Below are positions 25,754 to 64,000 of a stretch of 64,000 bases of DNA, in pieces. Each line of letters opens with the position of its first letter. Position 1 is the stretch's first letter. The DNA is from a virus. Lineage: Duplodnaviria > Caudoviricetes. A program made the translations under genes and the position numbers. The notes under the pieces are model-generated. The model saw nothing but the letters and a program-made list of their open reading frames with translations, was not told the DNA's origin and made no database searches. The DNA lies in the IMG/VR virus record IMGVR_UViG_3300030376_008775, positions 58,739 through 122,738 of that record; one strand, given 5' to 3'.

Positions 25754-28700
25754 ATGGCAAACGCAACAAAAGAGCAAATAAATCAACTTTGGAAAAGATT
25801 ATTAACAGCCCACAAAGAACCAGATCCATTTAAAAAATTAGATATTTTATCTGCTTCTCCTGCTGTTAAGAGTTTTGATGCCGGATGTGTAGACGGCAGT
25901 GATATGTCGATTTGTCCGGACAATAATATTTTCTTTAAAAATATTATAATGGAAGATGCTAGTTTAGAATATCCTTCTAAAATTGAGGGAGAAAACCCTA
26001 CTGATCTTAATACTAATGAGCAGAGCAAAAACGATAATTTGTCTGCCGCACAAAATTTAATTAATGTACCGGATATACCAGAGCCAGAGGATGGAACAAA
26101 CATTGGTGCGACACACTATGTTTTTATACCATCAACTTTTTATGGCGAAGAAAACTTTGCCGAAGCTGTTGTAAGAGCTGGATTTATATCTAGCAAAGAA
26201 AATCCTGAAAAAATTACAGAACTTGATATTGTTGTTAATGGAAAATACAATATGAGTAAGAATTTGTTTAAATCAGCAGTTTATGGTTCGGGCCCTCCTG
26301 AAAAAAGAATTAACTGGGGCCCCTCGGCTGTGATAGAAACACTTCCTCACTTTACTCCTGTACGTGTGATCAGAGAAGGTTTCGGAATCTTTGGTTATTT
26401 TTCACAAATAGCTTGGTATGATACAGACGAGATCAGTGGTACGGAAGAATGGAAAAATCTTGCGCGCCCAGTGGGATATAAAAGCCGTACTAATGACAAA
26501 AGCGACCAAAATTATGCTTTTATTGATAGCAGATTATTAAAAAGGTATCGTTCGTACTACGATAGCCTACAAGCTCTAGATTCTGTCTTGGAACAAGAAA
26601 TATCTAAAATTAAATTACATCCGAGTAATCCGGCAACTTTTATATTTGATTATTTAAAACGAGCTGATCTTCCACTTATTCAAACAAATGACCCAACTAA
26701 GTCCCCATCTTACGATAATATAGCAGACAGATCTTTATTTTTTAGTCCGATTTCTGATACGTATCAAGCGTTTTTTAATCAAGAGACACTAGAATACGTA
26801 GCAGTACTTAATCTTCCTACTAATACTACAATCGAAACGGCGAAAAAAGAAGGAATTAAATTTCTGCTAGAGTTCTATGGTAAAAGATTTGATGACTTTT
26901 TAATAGATCGTTTAATGTACCTAGGGGGAGACAATTATAATATTGGCACGCGCCCCCAAATTAACAACGCATCCTTTATACAAAATAAAACTCAAGGTTT
27001 GTTTGCAAAGGTTAAGCGAGTATCATCTTCTGAACGTCCCGATGGTTTAAAAACTTTTACTGTTGCTATTCCGGCTACGTATATGGATCACCCATCTTTA
27101 GAGCCAGATCTATCAAATTTATTAACAAGAAAGCAATACATTGATAGCGATATTGTTAGCTATTTGTACTGGCACAATCTGGCCGGGGAATTCTTCCTGA
27201 GGAACTTGCGGCTGCAAGATGATCTTCAAATTTTTAAAAAAAGAATTGAAGCCCATGAGGGATCTTTAACTATAACCTCGGCAGATATAGATGACAAGAT
27301 AAAAAGAATCACATCTTTTCGTGATCAAATGTTTGGTTTTCTAACGATTAATGATATAGATATGACCCGCAGTCCGAATGCGCTCGGTAAAGAGGAAATT
27401 GAATTTGGGTTAGACGATAACTTTAAAGTTGTTTTTGTTACGTATACTGATGAGACAGGCAAAGCGCGCTTTTTGAGAAAAGGTATGAATGTTCTCAATG
27501 AAGCAATCCAAGCTTTTGCCGATCCAACTACTAGCGCTTATTTGTTTTATGCTGATCAAATTCGCGAAGCTATAAAAGAAGATACGTATCACGGGATTGA
27601 TTTAGTTCAGAAGTTTACTTTTCCAATACCTGTCGCGCGCCCATCTGATAAAAGTCAAGAATCAGATTCGAATAGCAGCCCTGCTCCAAAAAAAGAAGAC
27701 GAGCAAGAAATTGAATCGCTACAGAAAAAAGATAGCAAGACCGCAGAAGATGTAAAAAAAGAAAATAGTCTCTTAGGTTCTCCTGAGAGAAAAAGATTTA
27801 AAGCAGAGATTGTTAACAAAGAAACATTTGATTCTGGAGACGAAGTTTATCAAAGTTTCGACAGGATAATAAATTCCTCTAACAGTGTCGAAGGCGTATT
27901 CAATAATGTCTTGGATAAAGCACCAGTGTATAATTTAATGGCAAAGTCTGCTCTTTGTTTAGCAAATCGATCTGATGCTCTTAGTGGTACAACACTTATC
28001 GAAGGTCTAGAATTAACACTCGACGCGTTACAGGATTTTACAAAAATAAAAAATCAAGTCGAGATTCTAAGTAAAAATTTGGATCAAATAGGGTTTGAGT
28101 TTCCAAAACTTAGTTATTCTGATGATCCTCTGGCAGAAATGTCAGACAATATAAGAATAGAAATATTAAATACTTTGAATACAGAACTGCTGCCAGTTGT
28201 GCAAACAGTTTTGCAAGATTTATCTAATTTTTGCCAAGGTTTGAACCTTAACTTGCCTTTAGAAAGTCCACCAGATTCAGATCCAAACTTTGATCAGCTA
28301 AGCCCAGATGAATTAGAAAACTTAAATAACTTATTTAACGCTTCTGCAAAAACAAATTTTCCAGGTGACCAAAATATATTTGACAGCCTGAACCCTGGAG
28401 CTTTGCAAAATATTCGCAGTAGTTTATATGAGATTGTAGAACAAATGTCGGGTATGCCACTAAGCCCACAAGTAGTTAGTGATTTACAAAATTTATTGCA
28501 AGTGCTTTCAAGTATACTGAGGCCTACAGAAATATGTAGTCTTTTGGCCGGCGAGGCAACTCAACTAGTATTGAGCATATGTCTTACAATAATAAGACAG
28601 CGAGAAGAATTTCTACTTCTAAGCGAATATCTTAACACCACTGACGCAGTTAAGAAGTTTTTTATAGGCTTAGGAAAATATGCTAATAAAAGCATATGCT

Positions 28701-35417: not shown

Positions 35418-37054
35418 TGGCTATCAAAAGATACACTGCAGACAAAGATAACACTATAACGAATGCATTCGAAGAGAACCTTACGACTAGGGCTACTGGA
35501 TCAAATATGGGTGCTTCTGATGTACTTGAGGTATTTTCTATCTATGGGCAAACGTTTAGCTCTGCATCTACAACCGGAATAACACAAACACAAGAGCTAT
35601 CTCGCGTTTTAGTTCAATTTCCGGTTGCAGATGTTATAGCAGATAGAGCTGCCGGCCATATTCCTGCTTCAGGAAGTGTAGACTTCTATTTGTGTATGTA
35701 CAATGCTAAACATGGCGAGACAGTACCAAAACAAGCAACATATGTTGTTGTACCTGTCTCTTCTTCTTGGGAAGAGGGTATCGGACTTGATATGGAAAAC
35801 TATCAAGATTTAACAAATAACAAAGAAGGCTCTACTTGGATTAAAAGAGCTGGAAACACTAGCTGGAATACTATCGGAGGAACTTACTTAACTGCAGCTG
35901 CAGGAAATAATTATGGAGACCGAAGACAAACAGTAACATTAGAAAATGGAACAGAAGATTTAAAAATTGATGTTACTGACGATGTAGAAAGGTGGATTAA
36001 AGGTACATTAGCAGCGGGAGGTTTTCCAAACTATGGATTTGGAGTATTCTTAACATCTAGTCAAGAAGCTTACTTTTCCAGCTCGGCAGGTACTTTCTCA
36101 AGTGGAAACTCAATTCAAAATGTTTCTGGAGCAACACGCTCTTATTACACAAAAAGATTTTTTGCTAGAACTAGTCAATTTTTTCACAAGAGGCCAGCTG
36201 TTGAAGCAAGATGGGATTCATCAATAAAAGATAATCGAGGAAATGTACAATATAGTAGTTCCTTATTGTCGGCAACCGATAATTTAAATACTGTTTATTT
36301 ATATAATTTTGTTAATGGCCAATTAAAAAATATTCCTGGGATTGCAGATGCGTCTAAAAGAATATATGTCCAGTTGTTTTCTGGATCAAGCACTCCTTCC
36401 GGATCACCAATTGATTTAGTTACTACGACTGATTTTACAACTACTGCTGTACCAACTGTGGTAACCGGAGGCTACGTTGCAACAGGAATATATTCGGCAT
36501 CTTTTGCATTGACCGCTGCAGCTCCTCCACTAAGTAAAATATTTGATGTGTGGTACTTGGATGGTACCAATAAGCTCGGCGCGCAAGTAAACACTTCATC
36601 TTTCGAACCTAGTGTTTTTAAAAGTTCTACTGAAAACGTGCCTAGCTCATACGTTATAAACATTAATAATCTTAAATCTAGTTACAACAACAATGAAATT
36701 GCTAGGTTTAGAGTATTTACTAGGCTAAAAGATTGGAATCCTACAATATATACAAGAGCAATTGCAAAAGTAGAAAATTACTTGTTAGACGATATGTATT
36801 TCAAAATCAATAGAACTGTTGATGATGAAAATATTATATCGTATGGAACTGGCAGTACATCACCTCAAGCAGTTGGTACCAATACTTCTTACACTAGATT
36901 ATCTTATGATATATCTGGTTCTTATTTTGATTTGGACATGTCGATCTTAGAGCCTGGGTATATGTATTATATACAAGTTGCATATTATGATAACAACTCT
37001 TACAAACAATTTAATCAAACATTTAATTTTAAAGTAGAAGACAACGGATATTAG
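35417..37054 (+). CDS. virion structural protein with DNRLRE/CBM-like N-terminal domain
   Basis: ADKDNTI..NMGAS..SRVLVQF..SWEEG..IDVT..W..NYGF pattern; Ser/Thr/Gly rich. Confidence 0.55.
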   Translation: MAIKRYTADKDNTITNAFEENLTTRATGSNMGASDVLEVFSIYGQTFSSASTTGITQTQELSRVLVQFPVADVIADRAAGHIPASGSVDFYLCMYNAKHGETVPKQATYVVVPVSSSWEEGIGLDMENYQDLTNNKEGSTWIKRAGNTSWNTIGGTYLTAAAGNNYGDRRQTVTLENGTEDLKIDVTDDVERWIKGTLAAGGFPNYGFGVFLTSSQEAYFSSSAGTFSSGNSIQNVSGATRSYYTKRFFARTSQFFHKRPAVEARWDSSIKDNRGNVQYSSSLLSATDNLNTVYLYNFVNGQLKNIPGIADASKRIYVQLFSGSSTPSGSPIDLVTTTDFTTTAVPTVVTGGYVATGIYSASFALTAAAPPLSKIFDVWYLDGTNKLGAQVNTSSFEPSVFKSSTENVPSSYVININNLKSSYNNNEIARFRVFTRLKDWNPTIYTRAIAKVENYLLDDMYFKINRTVDDENIISYGTGSTSPQAVGTNTSYTRLSYDISGSYFDLDMSILEPGYMYYIQVAYYDNNSYKQFNQTFNFKVEDNGY

Positions 37055-53753: not shown

Positions 53754-54734
53754 ATGGGATTTTTAGACAACTCGGGCGATATTATTCTAGACGCCGTATT
53801 AACAGACCTTGGACGTGAAAGATTAGCCAGAGGCGACGGATCTTTCAAAATCACAAAATTTGCTGCAGCTGATGATGAAATTGATTATGCAAAATATAAT
53901 AAAAATAATTCATCCGGCTCTGCTTATTATGACTTGGATATTTTAACAACACCTGTTTTAGAGGCTTTTACAAATAATATTAGCTCTTGTAAACATAAGT
54001 TAATGACAATTCCTCGCAATAACTTACTTTATTTGCCTGTTGTTAAATTGGCAAATAATGTCAATGGTGTTAACGCGGAACTTTGTACAACCACAACTGT
54101 GAGTGGGTTGTATTTGGTGACAGTTGATAACGAGACTTCTGTCAACAAAGTTGGCACAAAAGAGTTATACACGCAGCTTGGAATTATAAGGGGAGATGGA
54201 CAGCCTGCAGGAAATGGTGGTGATGGCTCAACTCAGATTGTCGTTGATCAAGGTTTAGATACAACAAAGATTCCAAGTAGCTTCACATTAGATTCTGATC
54301 TTATGGAAAATCAATATATTATTGAGATCGATGACCGCCTAGGCAAGATCAACACTCCTCTTGAGGCAGGAAATGCTCTAGCAAATCCAAATTTTATTGA
54401 TGACGATAGAATCGCTAGTTATTACTTATCTGCAACAAGTAATCCAAATTTTGTATCTTCATTGCCAGCAGCAACGAATAATGAAGGGACAAACAATAGT
54501 AACATTTCGGCCGTCGCCGGCCCAAGAGGAACAAGATTAAAATTTACAATCAGAGCTTCATTAGAATTAAACACAAGCACTAGTTTATTTTCTCGACTGG
54601 GTGGTACTTTTGGACTCAATACCGATTCAAAGAACTATGGAAGCCACCGCTTTATTGACTCAACAGTAAGGATTACTGGTGTTACAACTGGATACAGGTT
54701 AGATATTCCTGTGCGATTTATTAAAAAAGTCTAA
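53754..54734 (+). CDS. tail/baseplate structural protein
   Basis: MGFLDNSGDIILDAVLTDLGRERLARG..FKITKFAAADDEIDY; GGAG RBS. Confidence 0.6.
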   Translation: MGFLDNSGDIILDAVLTDLGRERLARGDGSFKITKFAAADDEIDYAKYNKNNSSGSAYYDLDILTTPVLEAFTNNISSCKHKLMTIPRNNLLYLPVVKLANNVNGVNAELCTTTTVSGLYLVTVDNETSVNKVGTKELYTQLGIIRGDGQPAGNGGDGSTQIVVDQGLDTTKIPSSFTLDSDLMENQYIIEIDDRLGKINTPLEAGNALANPNFIDDDRIASYYLSATSNPNFVSSLPAATNNEGTNNSNISAVAGPRGTRLKFTIRASLELNTSTSLFSRLGGTFGLNTDSKNYGSHRFIDSTVRITGVTTGYRLDIPVRFIKKV

Positions 54735-58495: not shown

Positions 58496-58597
58496 ATGAA
58501 AAAAGTATTACATAAGTTAGTAAATTTATTCAACAAGAATCATTGCAGCTGCTGCTGCGAGACTTGTGCTTGTGAAAGTTGTTGTGAGAAATGTTAA
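58496..58597 (+). CDS. 33-aa Cys-rich peptide (metallothionein-like)
   Basis: Below the ORF-track cutoff. MKKVLHKLVNLFNKNHCSCCCETCACESCCEKC*. AAAGGAG RBS at 58481-58487; its stop abuts the next GTG. Confidence 0.75.
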   Translation: MKKVLHKLVNLFNKNHCSCCCETCACESCCEKC

Positions 58598-59050
58598 GTG
58601 AAACTCTTATTTGAAAATTGGCGAAAGTATTTAATCGAGGCCATTGGCGCTGATGAAAACCCAGATTTATCTCAAGACGCTAAAGCATTTAAAACTGCTA
58701 AAAAACCTATTCCACTTAATTTTAGGTATGCAAAAGATGATGAAGTGATACAAACAAAAGAAGGCCCAGTTAAAGCTAACGCTGGAGATGCTATCATGAC
58801 TGGTACTAAAGGCGAAAATTGGCCTATTCCCGTCAAGAAGTTTAAGCAAACATACGATATTCTAGAACCTGGAAAAGCTGCAAAGAAAAATATTCCAGTA
58901 TTTGCCAAAGAAATGCAAGAACCATTTCAAGTAAAGGTATCTTGGTCTGCAGATCTATTACAAGGGGAAGCAGGAGATTTTTTAGTTCAATATGGTCCGG
59001 GAGATTATGGTGTTGTTGGAGCAGAAATATTTAAGGAAACTTATAAATGA
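58598..59050 (+). CDS. PGDYG-family protein with N-terminal leader
   Basis: QYGPGDYGVV; two internal repeats of AGD....G(E/D)....FK.TY; leader MKLLFENWRKYLIE. Confidence 0.7.
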   Translation: MKLLFENWRKYLIEAIGADENPDLSQDAKAFKTAKKPIPLNFRYAKDDEVIQTKEGPVKANAGDAIMTGTKGENWPIPVKKFKQTYDILEPGKAAKKNIPVFAKEMQEPFQVKVSWSADLLQGEAGDFLVQYGPGDYGVVGAEIFKETYK

Positions 59051-59526
59051 AACTTATATTTGAAAGCTGGCGAAAGTATTTAAAAGAAGAGGCCTCTGAA
59101 GAAAAGATTGAAGACGTTGTTGTAGACGTTTTAAAAGATGAAGGCGGAGCTGCAGGGCTAGATCCTATTGAGAAAGCTGTTGATGAGTTGGAATTACCAG
59201 AAGGTTTTGATTTAAAAGACTTTCTGAAAGGTTTAAGAGGCGTAGGACAGCATGAAGACGGCGATTACATCTTGGAAGACGGTGAAGAAATTCACGTAAA
59301 AGAAGGCATTGAAATTTTCTTGGAAGCGCAAGAAGAAATGCTTGACGAAAAAAAACGCAAAAAGAAAAAAAAGAAAAAGAAGAAGAAAGGTAAAAAAGAT
59401 GCTTGCTATCACAAAGTAAGATCAAGATATAGTGTCTGGCCTTCAGCGTATGCGTCTGGGGCCCTTGTAAAGTGTCGCAAAGTCGGCGCCAAGAATTGGG
59501 GCACAGGCGGGAAGAAAAAGAAATGA
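59047..59526 (+). CDS. leader-bearing protein: acidic N-half, poly-Lys run, basic Cys-containing C-domain
   Basis: MKLIFESWRKYLKE..LDEKKRKKKKKKKKKKGKKDACYHKV..WPSAYASGALVKCRK. Confidence 0.75.
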   Translation: MKLIFESWRKYLKEEASEEKIEDVVVDVLKDEGGAAGLDPIEKAVDELELPEGFDLKDFLKGLRGVGQHEDGDYILEDGEEIHVKEGIEIFLEAQEEMLDEKKRKKKKKKKKKKGKKDACYHKVRSRYSVWPSAYASGALVKCRKVGAKNWGTGGKKKK

Positions 59527-59858
59527 AAATCTCTGAAGAAGAATTAAACCAAATTATCAGGGAAGAAGTTCTAAAATATTTGGAAGAAAAGAAAAAAAGA
59601 AAATTAACTGCAAAGCCAAGTTCCGAAACTAGTCTTCGTGATTGGTTTGGAAGAAAAGGCGCAAAAGGCAAAAAAGGCGGATGGGTTGATTGTAACACTT
59701 GCCGCAAAGATAAAAAAACAGGCCGCAAGAAATGTAGTGCTTGTGGTAGATCTGGCGGAGAAAAGAGAGCAAAATATCCATCTTGTCGTCCAACACCCGG
59801 CGCTTGTGGTAAAAAAGGAAATTACGGCAAAAAATCAAAAGCCGGCAAAAAAGGATAA
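59523..59858 (+). CDS. leader-bearing basic Cys-rich protein
   Basis: The ATG at 59523 (ATGA overlap with the previous stop) gives MKISEEELNQIIREEVLKYLEE..LRDWF..WVDCNTC..CSACGR..YPSCRP. Confidence 0.75.
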   Translation: MKISEEELNQIIREEVLKYLEEKKKRKLTAKPSSETSLRDWFGRKGAKGKKGGWVDCNTCRKDKKTGRKKCSACGRSGGEKRAKYPSCRPTPGACGKKGNYGKKSKAGKKG

Positions 59859-59863
59859 CCATT

Positions 59864-60100
59864 ATGAAAATCACAAAAGAAAATTTAGAGCAGATTATTA
59901 AAGAAGAATTAGAAGCAGTCTTAACAGAAAAAAAAGAAGAACCAAAGTACGTTCGTGATGATAAGTATGTAGCAAAATATGATCCCGCTTTTCGTAAGGA
60001 AGTATGCCTTGGAAAAAAACGTAATGGCGAATTTGTAGATTGGTTTGTTAGAGATGGCAAAGGAAGATGTGAATATGTTACACTAGACGAAAGTAGCTAG
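59864..60100 (+). CDS. leader-bearing small protein
   Basis: MKITKENLEQIIKEELEAVLTE; AAGGA RBS. Confidence 0.75.
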   Translation: MKITKENLEQIIKEELEAVLTEKKEEPKYVRDDKYVAKYDPAFRKEVCLGKKRNGEFVDWFVRDGKGRCEYVTLDESS

Positions 60101-60118
60101 GACAATAAGGAATAAACA

Positions 60119-60517
60119 ATGAAAATCACAAAAGAATATCTACAAGAAATTATTAAAGAAGAGTTAGAGGCTGTTCTTAGCGAAGAAGAATTTTACGAAG
60201 TTGATGCTAAGGATATAAATGAAGAATTCTGCCCAGTTTGCGCTCCACTAGAAGAGAAAAAAAAGAAGAAGAAAAAGAAGAAAGCCTGCAAGCCATCCAA
60301 AGGCAAAAGGTTTGCTAAAAGAGTTGATGGCAAATGTCGCTCATTCGGGCAAGCCGGCCAAGCAAAAGGTGGTGGCGACAGAATTCGTCCCGGCACAGCA
60401 AAAGGTGATGCATACTGCGCAAGATCAGCTGGCATCAAAAAATGTAAAAATCCGCCATGCGCAAATACACTTTCTAGAAAGAAGTGGAAATGCCGCGGCA
60501 AAAAATCAATGAAATAA
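60119..60517 (+). CDS. leader-bearing basic Cys-rich protein with poly-Lys run
   Basis: MKITKEYLQEIIKEELEAVLSE..LEEKKKKKKKKKACKP..FGQAG..YCARSAG..KKWKC; AAGGA RBS. Confidence 0.75.
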   Translation: MKITKEYLQEIIKEELEAVLSEEEFYEVDAKDINEEFCPVCAPLEEKKKKKKKKKACKPSKGKRFAKRVDGKCRSFGQAGQAKGGGDRIRPGTAKGDAYCARSAGIKKCKNPPCANTLSRKKWKCRGKKSMK

Positions 60518-60522
60518 ATTAC

Positions 60523-60832
60523 GGGGATGAACTGGTATCGACTGAGTATTGAAAATTTAATGTGCAAGGCTGTGTGAGTGTGGCACAGCAAAAACACTCA
60601 ACAATTTAAACGCCAACGATAACGTTAGCTTTGATTACGCCCTAGCGGCTTAATTACGGGGTTGTAGTCGCCTTGTTAACCAAGACTACGAAAAAAGTTT
60701 TTGGCTTCTTTAAAGAGCCAATGCCGCGCTGGATAGGATAAGTTTGTCAGAGTTCGTAAACTGAATAACCTTGTGAATGACATTATTTTTAAAATATTTA
60801 GGACTCGGGTTCGACTCCCGACATCTCCACCA
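60523..60832 (+). ncRNA. ssrA: tmRNA (one-piece, 310 nt), tag ANDNVSFDYALAA
   Basis: 5' GGGGATG pairs with 3' CATCTCC-ACCA including a G3-U wobble. T-arm TCGGGTTCGACTCCCGA. Pseudoknot 1: GCTGTG/CACAGC plus TGAGTGT/ACACTCA (60569-60600). Tag ORF 60612-60653 ends YALAA*. Confidence 0.95.
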
Positions 60833-60861
60833 ACTACTTAATATTAGAGAGGATTATCTTT

Positions 60862-61104
60862 ATGAAAATTACAAAACAAAAACTAAACAAAATTATCAAC
60901 GAAGAAATTGAACGCCACAGCATTTTACGAGAAGCAAATCGTACTGTTTTAGTTGAGAACAATAATCCAACTCTAAGAAAAGTATTGAAAGAACGCTTTG
61001 AAAAGTTAGGCGGTTATTATTTTGAAGCCCTTGAGGAAGGCGACAAAGAGTTAGCAAAAACTCTTCAAGAAGAAATGACCAGAATCTTCGAGGATCTAAC
61101 GTAA
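60862..61104 (+). CDS. leader-bearing small helical protein
   Basis: MKITKQKLNKIINEEIERHSILRE; GAGG RBS. Confidence 0.75.
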   Translation: MKITKQKLNKIINEEIERHSILREANRTVLVENNNPTLRKVLKERFEKLGGYYFEALEEGDKELAKTLQEEMTRIFEDLT

Positions 61105-61623: not shown

Positions 61624-64000
61624 ATGCGTTTTGCGCACATAGCGGATACTCATATCCGAAATTTAAAATATCATAAAGAATATAGAGAAGTTTTTAGTCA
61701 ACTGTACAAAAACCTCCGAGAACAAAAACCAGACTACATAATTCATTGCGGAGATATCGCACACACGAAAACTCAGATTAGCCCTGAATATGTTCAGATG
61801 TGTTCTGATTTTCTCAAGAATTTAGCAGACATAGCACCAACTTACGTCATTCTTGGCAATCACGATGGGAACCTACGTAACTCAAGCCGTCAGGACGCCC
61901 TTACGCCTATCGCCAACGCATTGGAGCACGAAAGTCTATACCTACTTCGTGATGCGGGAGAAACGCCGTTAAACGACCGTTTCTCGTTGAATGTGCTGTC
62001 TGTGTTTGACGAGGACAATTGGATTGAACCAACTGATACAAATCGAATAAACATTGCATTATACCATGGATCTATTTCAAATTGTGAAACAGATCATGGA
62101 TGGAGAATGGAGAGAGGTGAAAATGATATTAGCATCTTTGATAATTTTGACTATGGTTTTCTTGGTGATATACACAAGACCAATCAAATCTTGGACAGAA
62201 AAGGCAAGGTACGTTATCCTGGCTCAACGGTCCAACAGAATCACGGAGAAACCAATGACAAAGGATACTTGCTCTGGGACATCGAAGACAAAGAAAATTA
62301 CACGTGCAGACATTTTGTTTTAAAAAACCCCAAGCCTTTTATTACAATTCCTTTGACACCAACTGGTAAAATTTCTAAAAGAGTAGAGGTACAAACAGGT
62401 GCACGCTTGCGTCTTGTTTCCGAGAATCATCTGCCTTTAGATGTGATTCGAAAAGCAATTGATATTGCAAAAACACGTTTCAAGCCCGAGGCTATTACAT
62501 ATTTAAATCGTGCACAAGGAGATCGTGTAAATTTAGAAGATATAACTAATTCTTTAGTAAAAGAAGATTTACGAGATATTAATGTCCAGGAGGAGTTAAT
62601 TGAAGAGTATCTGCAAGAGTATCAAGTCGATTCCGAAACGACTAAGAAGGTTCTTGACCTTAATCGAGCTTACAAAAAAAGAGTTGAAGAGGAGGAGGAG
62701 ATCTCACGCAACGTCAACTGGCGTTTAAAAAAAGTAGAGTGGGATAATCTTTTTAACTACGGCGAAAAAAATTCAATTCGGTTTGACAATTTAAATGGTA
62801 TTGTTGGTATTTTTGGTAAGAATTTTTCTGGAAAGTCCAGTATTGTTGATTCAATCTTATATACAATGTTCAACACAACATCAAAAAACAACCGCAAGAA
62901 TCTTAATATTATTAATCAAAACAAAGATTACTGCCGAGGATACGTTGAGATTGATGTTGGTACAAAAACTTATAAGATCGAGCGCATTAGTACAAAGTAT
63001 AAGAAAAAACTTAAAGGTAATATAACAGACGAAGCAAAAACAGATCTTGAGTTTAATGTTTACGATAACGCCATTCAAGAAGAAAAAAGCCTTAACGGAA
63101 CATCTAGAAATCAAACAGACAAAAATATTAAAAAGATTTTTGGAACAATGGAAGATTTTCTTTTAACTTCAATGGCGTCACAATTAGGATCCCTTTCATA
63201 TATTAGCGAAGGCTCCACGCGCCGCAAAGAAATTCTTGCTAAGTTTTTAGACCTTGAAGTTTTTGAGCGCAAGTTTAGGATGGCGAAAGAAGAAGCTTCG
63301 GACACAAAAGCTTTGTTACGTCGGTGGCAGAACAGAAATTTTGATGAAGAAATTGAAGAAGCACAAGAAGTTTACAGTGAAAACAATATTAAGCTAGAAC
63401 AAAAAGAGCTGCATTGTAGTAGCCTTAAACAGCAGTTAGCTAATAAACAACAAGACTTACAAGAAATTTCTCTAAAGTTGAAAGAGATTCCTGACGATAT
63501 AGTAGATATCAAAGATTTGATGTCGGATATCAAGGAACAGAATGAATTGTTAAGAGGGTATGAAAATAATCGTGTAAGTCTTGTAGCAGAAAGCACAGCA
63601 AAAGAAAAGTATATTTTTGAAGTAGAGGAGTTTTTAGAAGAATTTCCAATTGAGGAAGTTCAACAAAAACAAAAAGAGATAGAAGAAAGAATTGAAAGAA
63701 TTAAAGACTTAGAAAATGATATTCAAAAACTGCAAGACAAGATAAGAAGACAAAAAAAGAAGATTAAGCTACTGGACGAAGTTCCTTGTGGTGATGAATT
63801 TCCTACTTGCAAGTTTATTGATGATGCTCACAAATCAAAAAAAGTTTTGAACGGTTCTAGCGTATCTCTTGATAAGCTATCAATCAATAAAGTTAAGTCA
63901 GAACAAGAGTTGAAAAACTTAGATCCCGACAATAACGTTGAAGTACTAGACAATTATAAGTCTTTCCACTTAAAACTAACAGATGCTAGAATAGAGCTTC
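61624..64000 (+). CDS. fused Mre11/SbcD nuclease - Rad50/SbcC ATPase (3'-truncated by the window)
   Basis: Not in the ORF track. Manual translation gives MRFAHIADTH..CGDIAH..GNHD..YHG..LGDIH..YPGS (metallophosphoesterase), then in the same frame NLFNYG..GKNFSGKSS (Walker A), a coiled coil, and CGDEFPTC. No stop before 64000. Confidence 0.9.
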   Translation, partial: MRFAHIADTHIRNLKYHKEYREVFSQLYKNLREQKPDYIIHCGDIAHTKTQISPEYVQMCSDFLKNLADIAPTYVILGNHDGNLRNSSRQDALTPIANALEHESLYLLRDAGETPLNDRFSLNVLSVFDEDNWIEPTDTNRINIALYHGSISNCETDHGWRMERGENDISIFDNFDYGFLGDIHKTNQILDRKGKVRYPGSTVQQNHGETNDKGYLLWDIEDKENYTCRHFVLKNPKPFITIPLTPTGKISKRVEVQTGARLRLVSENHLPLDVIRKAIDIAKTRFKPEAITYLNRAQGDRVNLEDITNSLVKEDLRDINVQEELIEEYLQEYQVDSETTKKVLDLNRAYKKRVEEEEEISRNVNWRLKKVEWDNLFNYGEKNSIRFDNLNGIVGIFGKNFSGKSSIVDSILYTMFNTTSKNNRKNLNIINQNKDYCRGYVEIDVGTKTYKIERISTKYKKKLKGNITDEAKTDLEFNVYDNAIQEEKSLNGTSRNQTDKNIKKIFGTMEDFLLTSMASQLGSLSYISEGSTRRKEILAKFLDLEVFERKFRMAKEEASDTKALLRRWQNRNFDEEIEEAQEVYSENNIKLEQKELHCSSLKQQLANKQQDLQEISLKLKEIPDDIVDIKDLMSDIKEQNELLRGYENNRVSLVAESTAKEKYIFEVEEFLEEFPIEEVQQKQKEIEERIERIKDLENDIQKLQDKIRRQKKKIKLLDEVPCGDEFPTCKFIDDAHKSKKVLNGSSVSLDKLSINKVKSEQELKNLDPDNNVEVLDNYKSFHLKLTDARIEL

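Follow-up and report, generated by a model that had tools for sequence, protein, structure and literature searches.

Why should six small neighbouring phage genes, whose products otherwise have little to do with one another, begin with the same two N-terminal peptides? The question arises near the end of IMG/VR virus record IMGVR_UViG_3300030376_008775 (Duplodnaviria; Caudoviricetes), a 122,738-bp sequence from an uncultured virus (36% G+C; CheckV completeness 68%), whose final 64 kb form the window analyzed here. From the list of open reading frames (ORFs) and their translations, two leader types can be distinguished, type A on two genes and type B on four. We argue that these leaders are probably the tags of a T4-style capsid-targeting propeptide system with swappable cargo encoded in a hyperplastic locus. 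The six cargo genes are the following (window coordinates):

58598..59050, plus strand: A1, 150 amino acids (aa); type A leader at residues 1-14 (58598-58639), then a beta-rich domain of the PGDYG family
59047..59526, plus strand: A2, 159 aa; type A leader (59047-59088), acidic region, poly-Lys block, basic Cys-containing domain
59523..59858, plus strand: B1, 111 aa; type B leader (59523-59588), very basic body (net charge +22) with six Cys
59864..60100, plus strand: B2, 78 aa; type B leader (59864-59929; profile E-value 6e-10), small body
60119..60517, plus strand: B3, 132 aa; type B leader (60119-60184), short acidic stretch, poly-Lys block, basic body with eight Cys, net charge +19
60862..61104, plus strand: B4, 80 aa; type B leader (60862-60933), helical body

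All six ORFs exist with the N-termini that an earlier note on this DNA had described, the first of them starting with GTG, and the two duplicated DNA strings that the note had pointed out were also located in the window. Type A comprises 14 residues, the first 12 of which are almost fixed, and type B leaders are 22-24 residues long. The note had placed the end of the similarity at an L-x-E motif. A late L-x-E (residues 21-24) is indeed real, but in type B it is a second site, an (I/L/V)-x-Glu being already invariant at residues 12-14. Profiles of both leaders, run on the genome, retrieved genuine copies with E-values of 1e-5 to 1e-13, set apart from every other ORF start, and the leader pattern is far beyond chance. 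In the whole 123-kb record, the profile search found 4 type A and 9-10 type B leaders, plus several looser look-alikes. The additional copies start at the following positions of the record:

38930 and 39586, minus strand: type A leaders
31788, 32222, 33558, 34295 and 40452: type B leaders

All significant copies are N-terminal, both in the record and in G006, a 157.7-kb contig collinear with it that was found through the window gene at 53754.

Are the leaders merely the conserved ends of related proteins? A degenerate back-translation search found the 12-residue core of type A in 29 IMG/VR stretches, where the bodies behind it range from 69 to 585 residues and have nothing else in common (mean column identity of 13% in their alignment). 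When the tagged proteins of the record, of two related genomes and of the IMG/VR type A loci were compared by BLASTP, the 53 sequences fell into 45 clusters, so that the leaders occur on a wide range of unrelated cargos, beyond full-length paralogues, in line with what the note had anticipated. Few bodies are recognized by Pfam: PGDYG, protein kinase (two), NT5C, 5'-nucleotidase and a weak papain-like toxin domain. Type B is far more widespread, since a looser version of its pattern occurs in at least 119 IMG/VR stretches and a 32-column profile, run against 1.84 billion protein representatives (50% identity), matched 12,390 clusters with E-values of 0.001 or better. The tags are not only modular, they are also interchangeable. 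Orthologues of the PGDYG protein A1 are abundant in marine metagenomes (155 matches) and mostly carry type A, but one has type B on the same body, and divergent relatives bear other variants still ending in [LIVM]-x-Glu; Glu14 is kept in at least 90% of the orthologues.

The searches among characterized phages were negative. The leader strings were not found in the literature searched, a megablast search of 50,697 phage records returned nothing for the region, and tblastn queries consisting of a 24-residue leader and of a protein with two leaders gave no leader match in cultured phages, to which low-complexity masking may contribute. The loose type B pattern is absent from T4, Syn9, S-PM2, P-SSM2, HTVC008M, immuto, Mel-JY01 and RM378; it has five matches in the uncultured 484-kb phage LR756508.

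Both leader types carry (I/L/V)-x-Glu at residues 12-14. In type A, 24 of 29 distinct proteins have Glu as residue 14, and in three others, with one additional residue, it is residue 15; the Glu share of the bodies is 9.7%. In the IMG/VR type B set the motif at residues 12-14 was imposed by the search pattern, but it holds also for the profile-detected copies of the record; moreover, conservation extends to the columns not fixed by the pattern, and the information content reaches background by about residue 23. A second [LIVM]-x-Glu ending at residues 17-26 is present in 84 of 113 type B leaders, compared with 18% expected from the bodies. It lies at residues 21-22 in 63 of the 113, with a Glu:Asp ratio of 63:7 at this place, whereas such motifs are close to 1:1 in the bodies, and it is mostly followed by Ala or Gly. 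Judged from these counts, the second site of type B is strongly Glu-specific. In T4, the prohead protease gp21 cuts after L/I-x-E, as first observed at a Glu-Ala bond, and an Asp at the leader site blocks processing but not targeting (PMC9026906).

If the leaders are processed in this way, a gp21-type protease should accompany them, and the earlier note had proposed looking for one. The record itself has no Peptidase_S77 match, probably because it is incomplete and ends about 5 kb before the head module; Pfam and PHROG scans of the large structural proteins of the window returned only gp6- and gp25-like baseplate matches and no head genes. The protease was found in the syntenic relative. The tail genes, a resolvase-like gene and the primase of G006 are 62-86% identical to those of the record, and they are followed by the transfer-messenger RNA (tmRNA) and leader-gene cluster, a fatty-acid-hydroxylase-like gene and the SbcCD-like gene in which the record ends. 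Beyond that point, the G006 genes encode, in this order, the large terminase, a portal of the gp20 type, a small membrane protein, a protease of the gp21 type, a protein with a type B tag, a protein of 362 residues whose start is leader-like, a small core-like protein with many Glu sites, ribosomal protein bS21, an acidic scaffold-like protein (472 residues) and a capsid protein of the gp23 type. The protease (PF03420, 3e-33; phrog_207, 4e-58) lies about 13 kb past the end point of the record. The type B gene that adjoins it has a parallel in a second genome, L033, in which a type B gene directly follows the protease. Tags and gp21-type proteases travel together more generally: PF03420 was identified in 15 of 16 tag-bearing contigs, a small sample for which the expected rate was estimated rather than measured, and these include four of five fragments with a completeness of just 13-31%, a sign that the tags are physically linked to the head module. 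The G006 capsid protein carries, at residue 59, an L-K-Glu with Ala as the next residue, in the position corresponding to the site at which T4 gp23 is cut (L-T-Glu, then Ala, at residue 65). The closest cultured relatives of the G006 protein are those of Microcystis phage Mel-JY01, Flavobacterium phage immuto and Rhodothermus phage RM378.

Two further observations concern this head module. A bS21 gene lies inside it, between the protease and capsid genes, throughout the clade. The N-termini of gp21-type proteases also resemble the core of type A (L-L-I-E-T-W at residues 6-11 in T4, L-L-F-E-N-W at residues 3-8 in type A), and far-T4 proteases begin with a similar Leu-Leu-x-Glu-aromatic run. This likeness was seen by eye and has no statistical support; it may mean that type A mimics the protease's own prohead-targeting propeptide. 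We do not claim that type B derives from the N-terminus of the conserved, small and core-like protein encoded after the protease (h84 family of G006), the likeness being visible by eye but the profile E-value 0.4 or worse. The genes concerned are:

L041:4474-4707 in G006, minus strand: bS21 gene, present also in L030-L034 and in Mel-JY01 (L182:6143-6370)
L190:2949-3587: T4 gene 21, protease compared at its N-terminus
L030-L034 and L041:6686-7330: far-T4 proteases compared at their N-termini

The cluster itself is framed by conserved anchors, with identities to G006 of 86% for the primase, 79% for the last leader gene and 67% for the hydroxylase-like gene. Between them, the five cargo genes at 58598-60517 of the window have no counterpart in G006, which has three different type B genes instead (L041/L042 region). 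The leader-gene cluster is a hyperplastic locus between conserved anchors, and T-even internal-protein genes likewise reside in polymorphic loci (PMC3012670). From the duplicated strings, the earlier note had proposed leader duplication and cargo swapping; this turnover of cargo genes and the leader swap on the PGDYG family are both seen. A scan for the eight-base T4 late-promoter consensus was uninformative on timing, its occurrences in the genome not lying upstream of structural or leader genes.

What do the leaders carry? The body of A1 is a PGDYG domain (Pfam PF14083, residues 56-150, 5.5e-20; 72.1 bits for a gathering cut-off of 27). In an AlphaFold2 model built from an alignment of A1 orthologues, this body is predicted with a predicted local distance difference test (pLDDT) score above 90, and the leader (about residues 1-13) as a helix with pLDDT below 50 that is not packed against it; a Foldseek search of the PDB with the model gave no neighbor below E 0.1. 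A2 has an acidic region of about 85 residues, which holds five more [LIVM]-x-Glu sites, and its charge per 20-residue block runs 0, -5, -5, -4, -6, +13, +3, +8; its C-terminal domain matches phrog_727 (2e-23). The ATG of B1 overlaps the stop of the preceding gene, and its Glu sites end at residues 14 and 22, with a Lys-rich block from residue 23. B2 has no match in Pfam or PHROG. B4 is the sole member of the cluster kept in G006, where it corresponds to h67, and a further orthologue is found in L069. A Pfam search of ten more tagged or tag-like proteins of the record yielded nothing usable. In all three basic proteins of the window, the last Glu site comes directly before the poly-Lys block (residue 101 in A2, 22 in B1 and 46 in B3), so that a cut at this site, as predicted, would free a strongly cationic body from both its tag and its acidic pro-region. 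This arrangement suggests that the proteins with an acidic pro-region and a poly-Lys block may be protease-activated DNA condensers acting in the phage head.

Taken together, these features are consistent with the following mechanism. The leader would form a short amphipathic helix at the N-terminus, standing apart from the folded body, and through it the protein would dock on the prohead's scaffolding core. A prohead protease of the gp21 family would then cleave behind the Glu of the (I/L/V)-x-Glu motif that occupies residues 12-14 and, in type B, once more near residue 22; in the three basic proteins, a further cleavage at the Glu site just ahead of the poly-Lys block would remove the tag together with the acidic pro-region. 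The freed bodies would remain in the head with the DNA, namely the Lys/Cys-rich, DNA-binding-like proteins in this phage and kinases, nucleotidases and many uncharacterized proteins elsewhere, and some of them would probably be injected. If the tag alone suffices, cargo genes could be freely gained, lost and re-tagged. Because no cultured phage tested carries the leaders, we infer packaging and cleavage, and likewise docking and injection, from these genomic features.

Could the leaders have another function? One alternative is that conservation acts on the nucleic acid, as a translation-initiation or other mRNA element or as a recombination cassette, and that the peptide is a by-product. Two pairs of window genes do share identical strings of 16-18 nt, and the locus is recombinationally plastic. 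On the other hand, the 12 residues of type A are encoded by 23 different DNAs in 32 instances, with all six Leu and all six Arg codons used. The 30 bases on either side are 32-36% identical compared with 85% within the tag, the third-position identity in the tag is 68% in genomes of 36% to 45% G+C, and no conserved DNA lies upstream of the record's own leader copies. Given the many codon versions and the flanks at background, the constraint is on the peptide and not on DNA or RNA, and we consider a nucleic-acid element to be ruled out for practical purposes. Hardly more credible is the idea that the tag serves a modifying enzyme, such as a radical-SAM/SPASM maturase, as its recognition sequence. 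A radical-SAM gene exists in the record and in G006, but that of the record lies in a glycan island about 47 kb from the leader cluster, and G001-G003, three tag-bearing genomes that are complete (100%), lack PF04055 although all of them have the protease.

Two other explanations deserve more weight. In the main one, the tags might be generic amphipathic docking helices, serving self-association or attachment to a membrane, a chaperonin or a replication/transcription factory, which are not removed and whose proteins act in the infected cell. Such a role would agree with the free amphipathic helix of the AlphaFold2 model, with the metabolic-type cargos (NT5C, 5'-nucleotidase, kinases), which phages usually express in the cell, and with the GroEL-like protein (g8) encoded by the genome, and linkage to the protease is indistinguishable from linkage to the whole T4-type core. 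We nevertheless regard it as unlikely, because it leaves unexplained the position-specific preference for Glu over Asp in the motif that ends both tags, followed by Ala or Gly, the Glu site that abuts the poly-Lys blocks, the tagged genes next to the protease inside the head-morphogenesis module and the enrichment of the protease on short tag-bearing fragments. Alternatively, type B could be mainly a protease-cut joint of polyproteins, of which the single-gene forms would be chain pieces, the motif marking where to cut rather than a destination. Indeed, the best 150 of the 12,390 database matches all have 2-4 type B copies per ORF, with a median spacing of 135 residues (e.g., P0121, P0123-P0125 and P0127), and an ORF of G001 (158679-159644) has two. 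However, 141 of these 150 still start with the tag, their ranking by summed score favors multi-copy proteins, and, of 174 internal copies, 110 have Met as their first residue, after a run of three residues that is semi-conserved (Glu at -3, Lys at -1). To this must be added the strictly N-terminal position of every significant copy in the record and in G006. By their sequences, the multi-tag ORFs look like tandem tagged genes fused in frame, or like true cargo polyproteins. The polyprotein explanation, which overlaps with capsid targeting rather than excluding it, is in our opinion improbable.

Several points also weigh against the capsid-targeting propeptide system that we favor. The absence of the protease from the record is one of them: its association with the tags rests on a relative and on co-occurrence, and co-occurrence cannot separate the protease from any other gene of the T4 core. 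In sequence comparisons, no homology between the tags and the T4 leader can be demonstrated, and the type B pattern is without a match in T4, four cultured Kyanoviridae, immuto, Mel-JY01 and RM378. Some cargos, the nucleotidases for instance, are ordinary-looking enzymes with no obvious reason for being packaged, and the Glu:Asp bias may be due in part to the general preference for Glu in helices. Finally, the many database proteins with 2-4 tags in one ORF are not predicted by a purely N-terminal address. The interpretation of the leaders as capsid-targeting tags, as put forward in the earlier note, is thus partly supported: everything that could be computed from it was found, including unrelated cargos and a protease in the lineage, whereas the record itself lacks that protease.

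How do the leaders compare with known systems? The capsid targeting sequence (CTS) carried by T4 internal proteins is reportedly to be credited to Mullaney and Black 1996. In T4, the CTS is found on IPI, IPII, IPIII and Alt and is removed by the prohead protease gp21 (PMC9026906, PMC3012670). Like it, the leaders described here are short N-terminal amphipathic propeptides (10-20 residues in T4, 14-24 here), conserved on otherwise unrelated and often basic proteins and ending in (L/I)-x-Glu; in both cases the lineage has a gp21-family protease and a gp23-type capsid protein with its own L-x-Glu maturation site, and the cargo genes lie in polymorphic loci. They differ in having no detectable sequence homology to the T4 leader (taken here from reviews), in forming two interchangeable families instead of one, with two Glu sites in type B, and in the dozen or more cargos per genome, among which are proteins with kinase and nucleotidase domains and proteins with an acidic pro-region and a poly-Lys block. 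Multi-tag ORFs also occur, and the carriers found so far are all uncultured. The cargo-loading peptides of encapsulins are a more distant parallel, in which a short terminal peptide suffices to load diverse cargo into an HK97-fold shell, but these peptides usually sit at the C-terminus, make direct contact with the shell and are retained instead of being cut off by a protease. The proteins encoded at 59047, 59523 and 60119 resemble adenovirus pVII and pre-mu, highly basic DNA-condensing precursors trimmed in the capsid by the virion protease, although lineage, protease and motif are unrelated and no modular tag is common to unrelated cargos there. In phiKZ, 201phi2-1 and SPN3US, ejection or inner-body proteins bear long N-terminal propeptides that target head proteins and are cut at multiple sites, after Glu, by a diverged gp21 homologue (PMC5694885). 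Identical N-termini occur in these phages too, but on diverged paralogues and not on unrelated bodies, and their propeptides mostly exceed 100 residues and have the motif S/A-x-Glu (PMC5694885).

The surroundings of the leader genes also have some features of their own. A 33-residue ORF between the primase and the first leader gene has nine Cys in its last 17 residues and no Pfam or PHROG match, and a tmRNA gene (Rfam RF00023, 113.6 bits) separates the fifth leader gene from the sixth; the tag peptide of this phage tmRNA has 13 residues and ends in Ala-Leu-Ala-Ala, and tmRNA genes are also present in G006 and G001. The SbcCD-like gene fuses an Mre11/SbcD-like nuclease to an SbcC/Rad50-like ATPase in one ORF (1050 residues in G006), inside which the record stops. 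The record is a scaffold, as indicated by a run of 10 N (G000:C1:35079-35088); the 35 kb to the left of this run have a gene-content style unlike the remainder, but the same gene families are nonetheless found in G006. A separate family consists of about a dozen proteins of 55-75 residues that all start with Met-Lys-Val-Gly-Asp-Leu-Val and that, unlike the leader-bearing proteins, look like full-length paralogues of one small domain. The positions of these features are:

58496-58597 of the window, plus strand: 33-residue Cys-rich ORF
60523-60832 of the window, plus strand: tmRNA
61624-63999 of the window, plus strand: SbcD/SbcC-like fusion, cut by the end of the record
G000:C1:16009-18589, 25809-27842 and 35640-35837, and G006rc 152085-154289: Met-Lys-Val-Gly-Asp-Leu-Val family

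This pair of tag families appears to be undescribed, and the same applies to their interchangeability, to the scale on which they occur and to the fact that they are so far confined to uncultured marine phages of the far-T4 type. A 2022 review considered capsid targeting as a possibly general loading route in T4-like phages (PMC9026906). In the same direction, we tentatively suggest, with less assurance than for the propeptide system itself, that the tags may be a general, interchangeable address code by which a large uncultured ocean clade of far-T4 phages loads almost any protein. The more than 12,000 clusters might then be a catalogue of virion-delivered effectors, including DNA-condensing proteins, kinases, nucleotidases, toxin-like and probably anti-defence proteins, which could be found by a motif of 14-22 residues and re-targeted by tag swap. 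If capsid targeting is confirmed, the T4 principle, known from one model phage and its close kin, would extend to a very large uncultured group with two exchangeable tags, which would also be natural tags for loading foreign proteins into other capsids. A simple sequence rule would moreover pick out, in abundant marine phages, the genes whose proteins travel in the virion and act first in the host, a class that in T4 includes anti-restriction and host-takeover factors.

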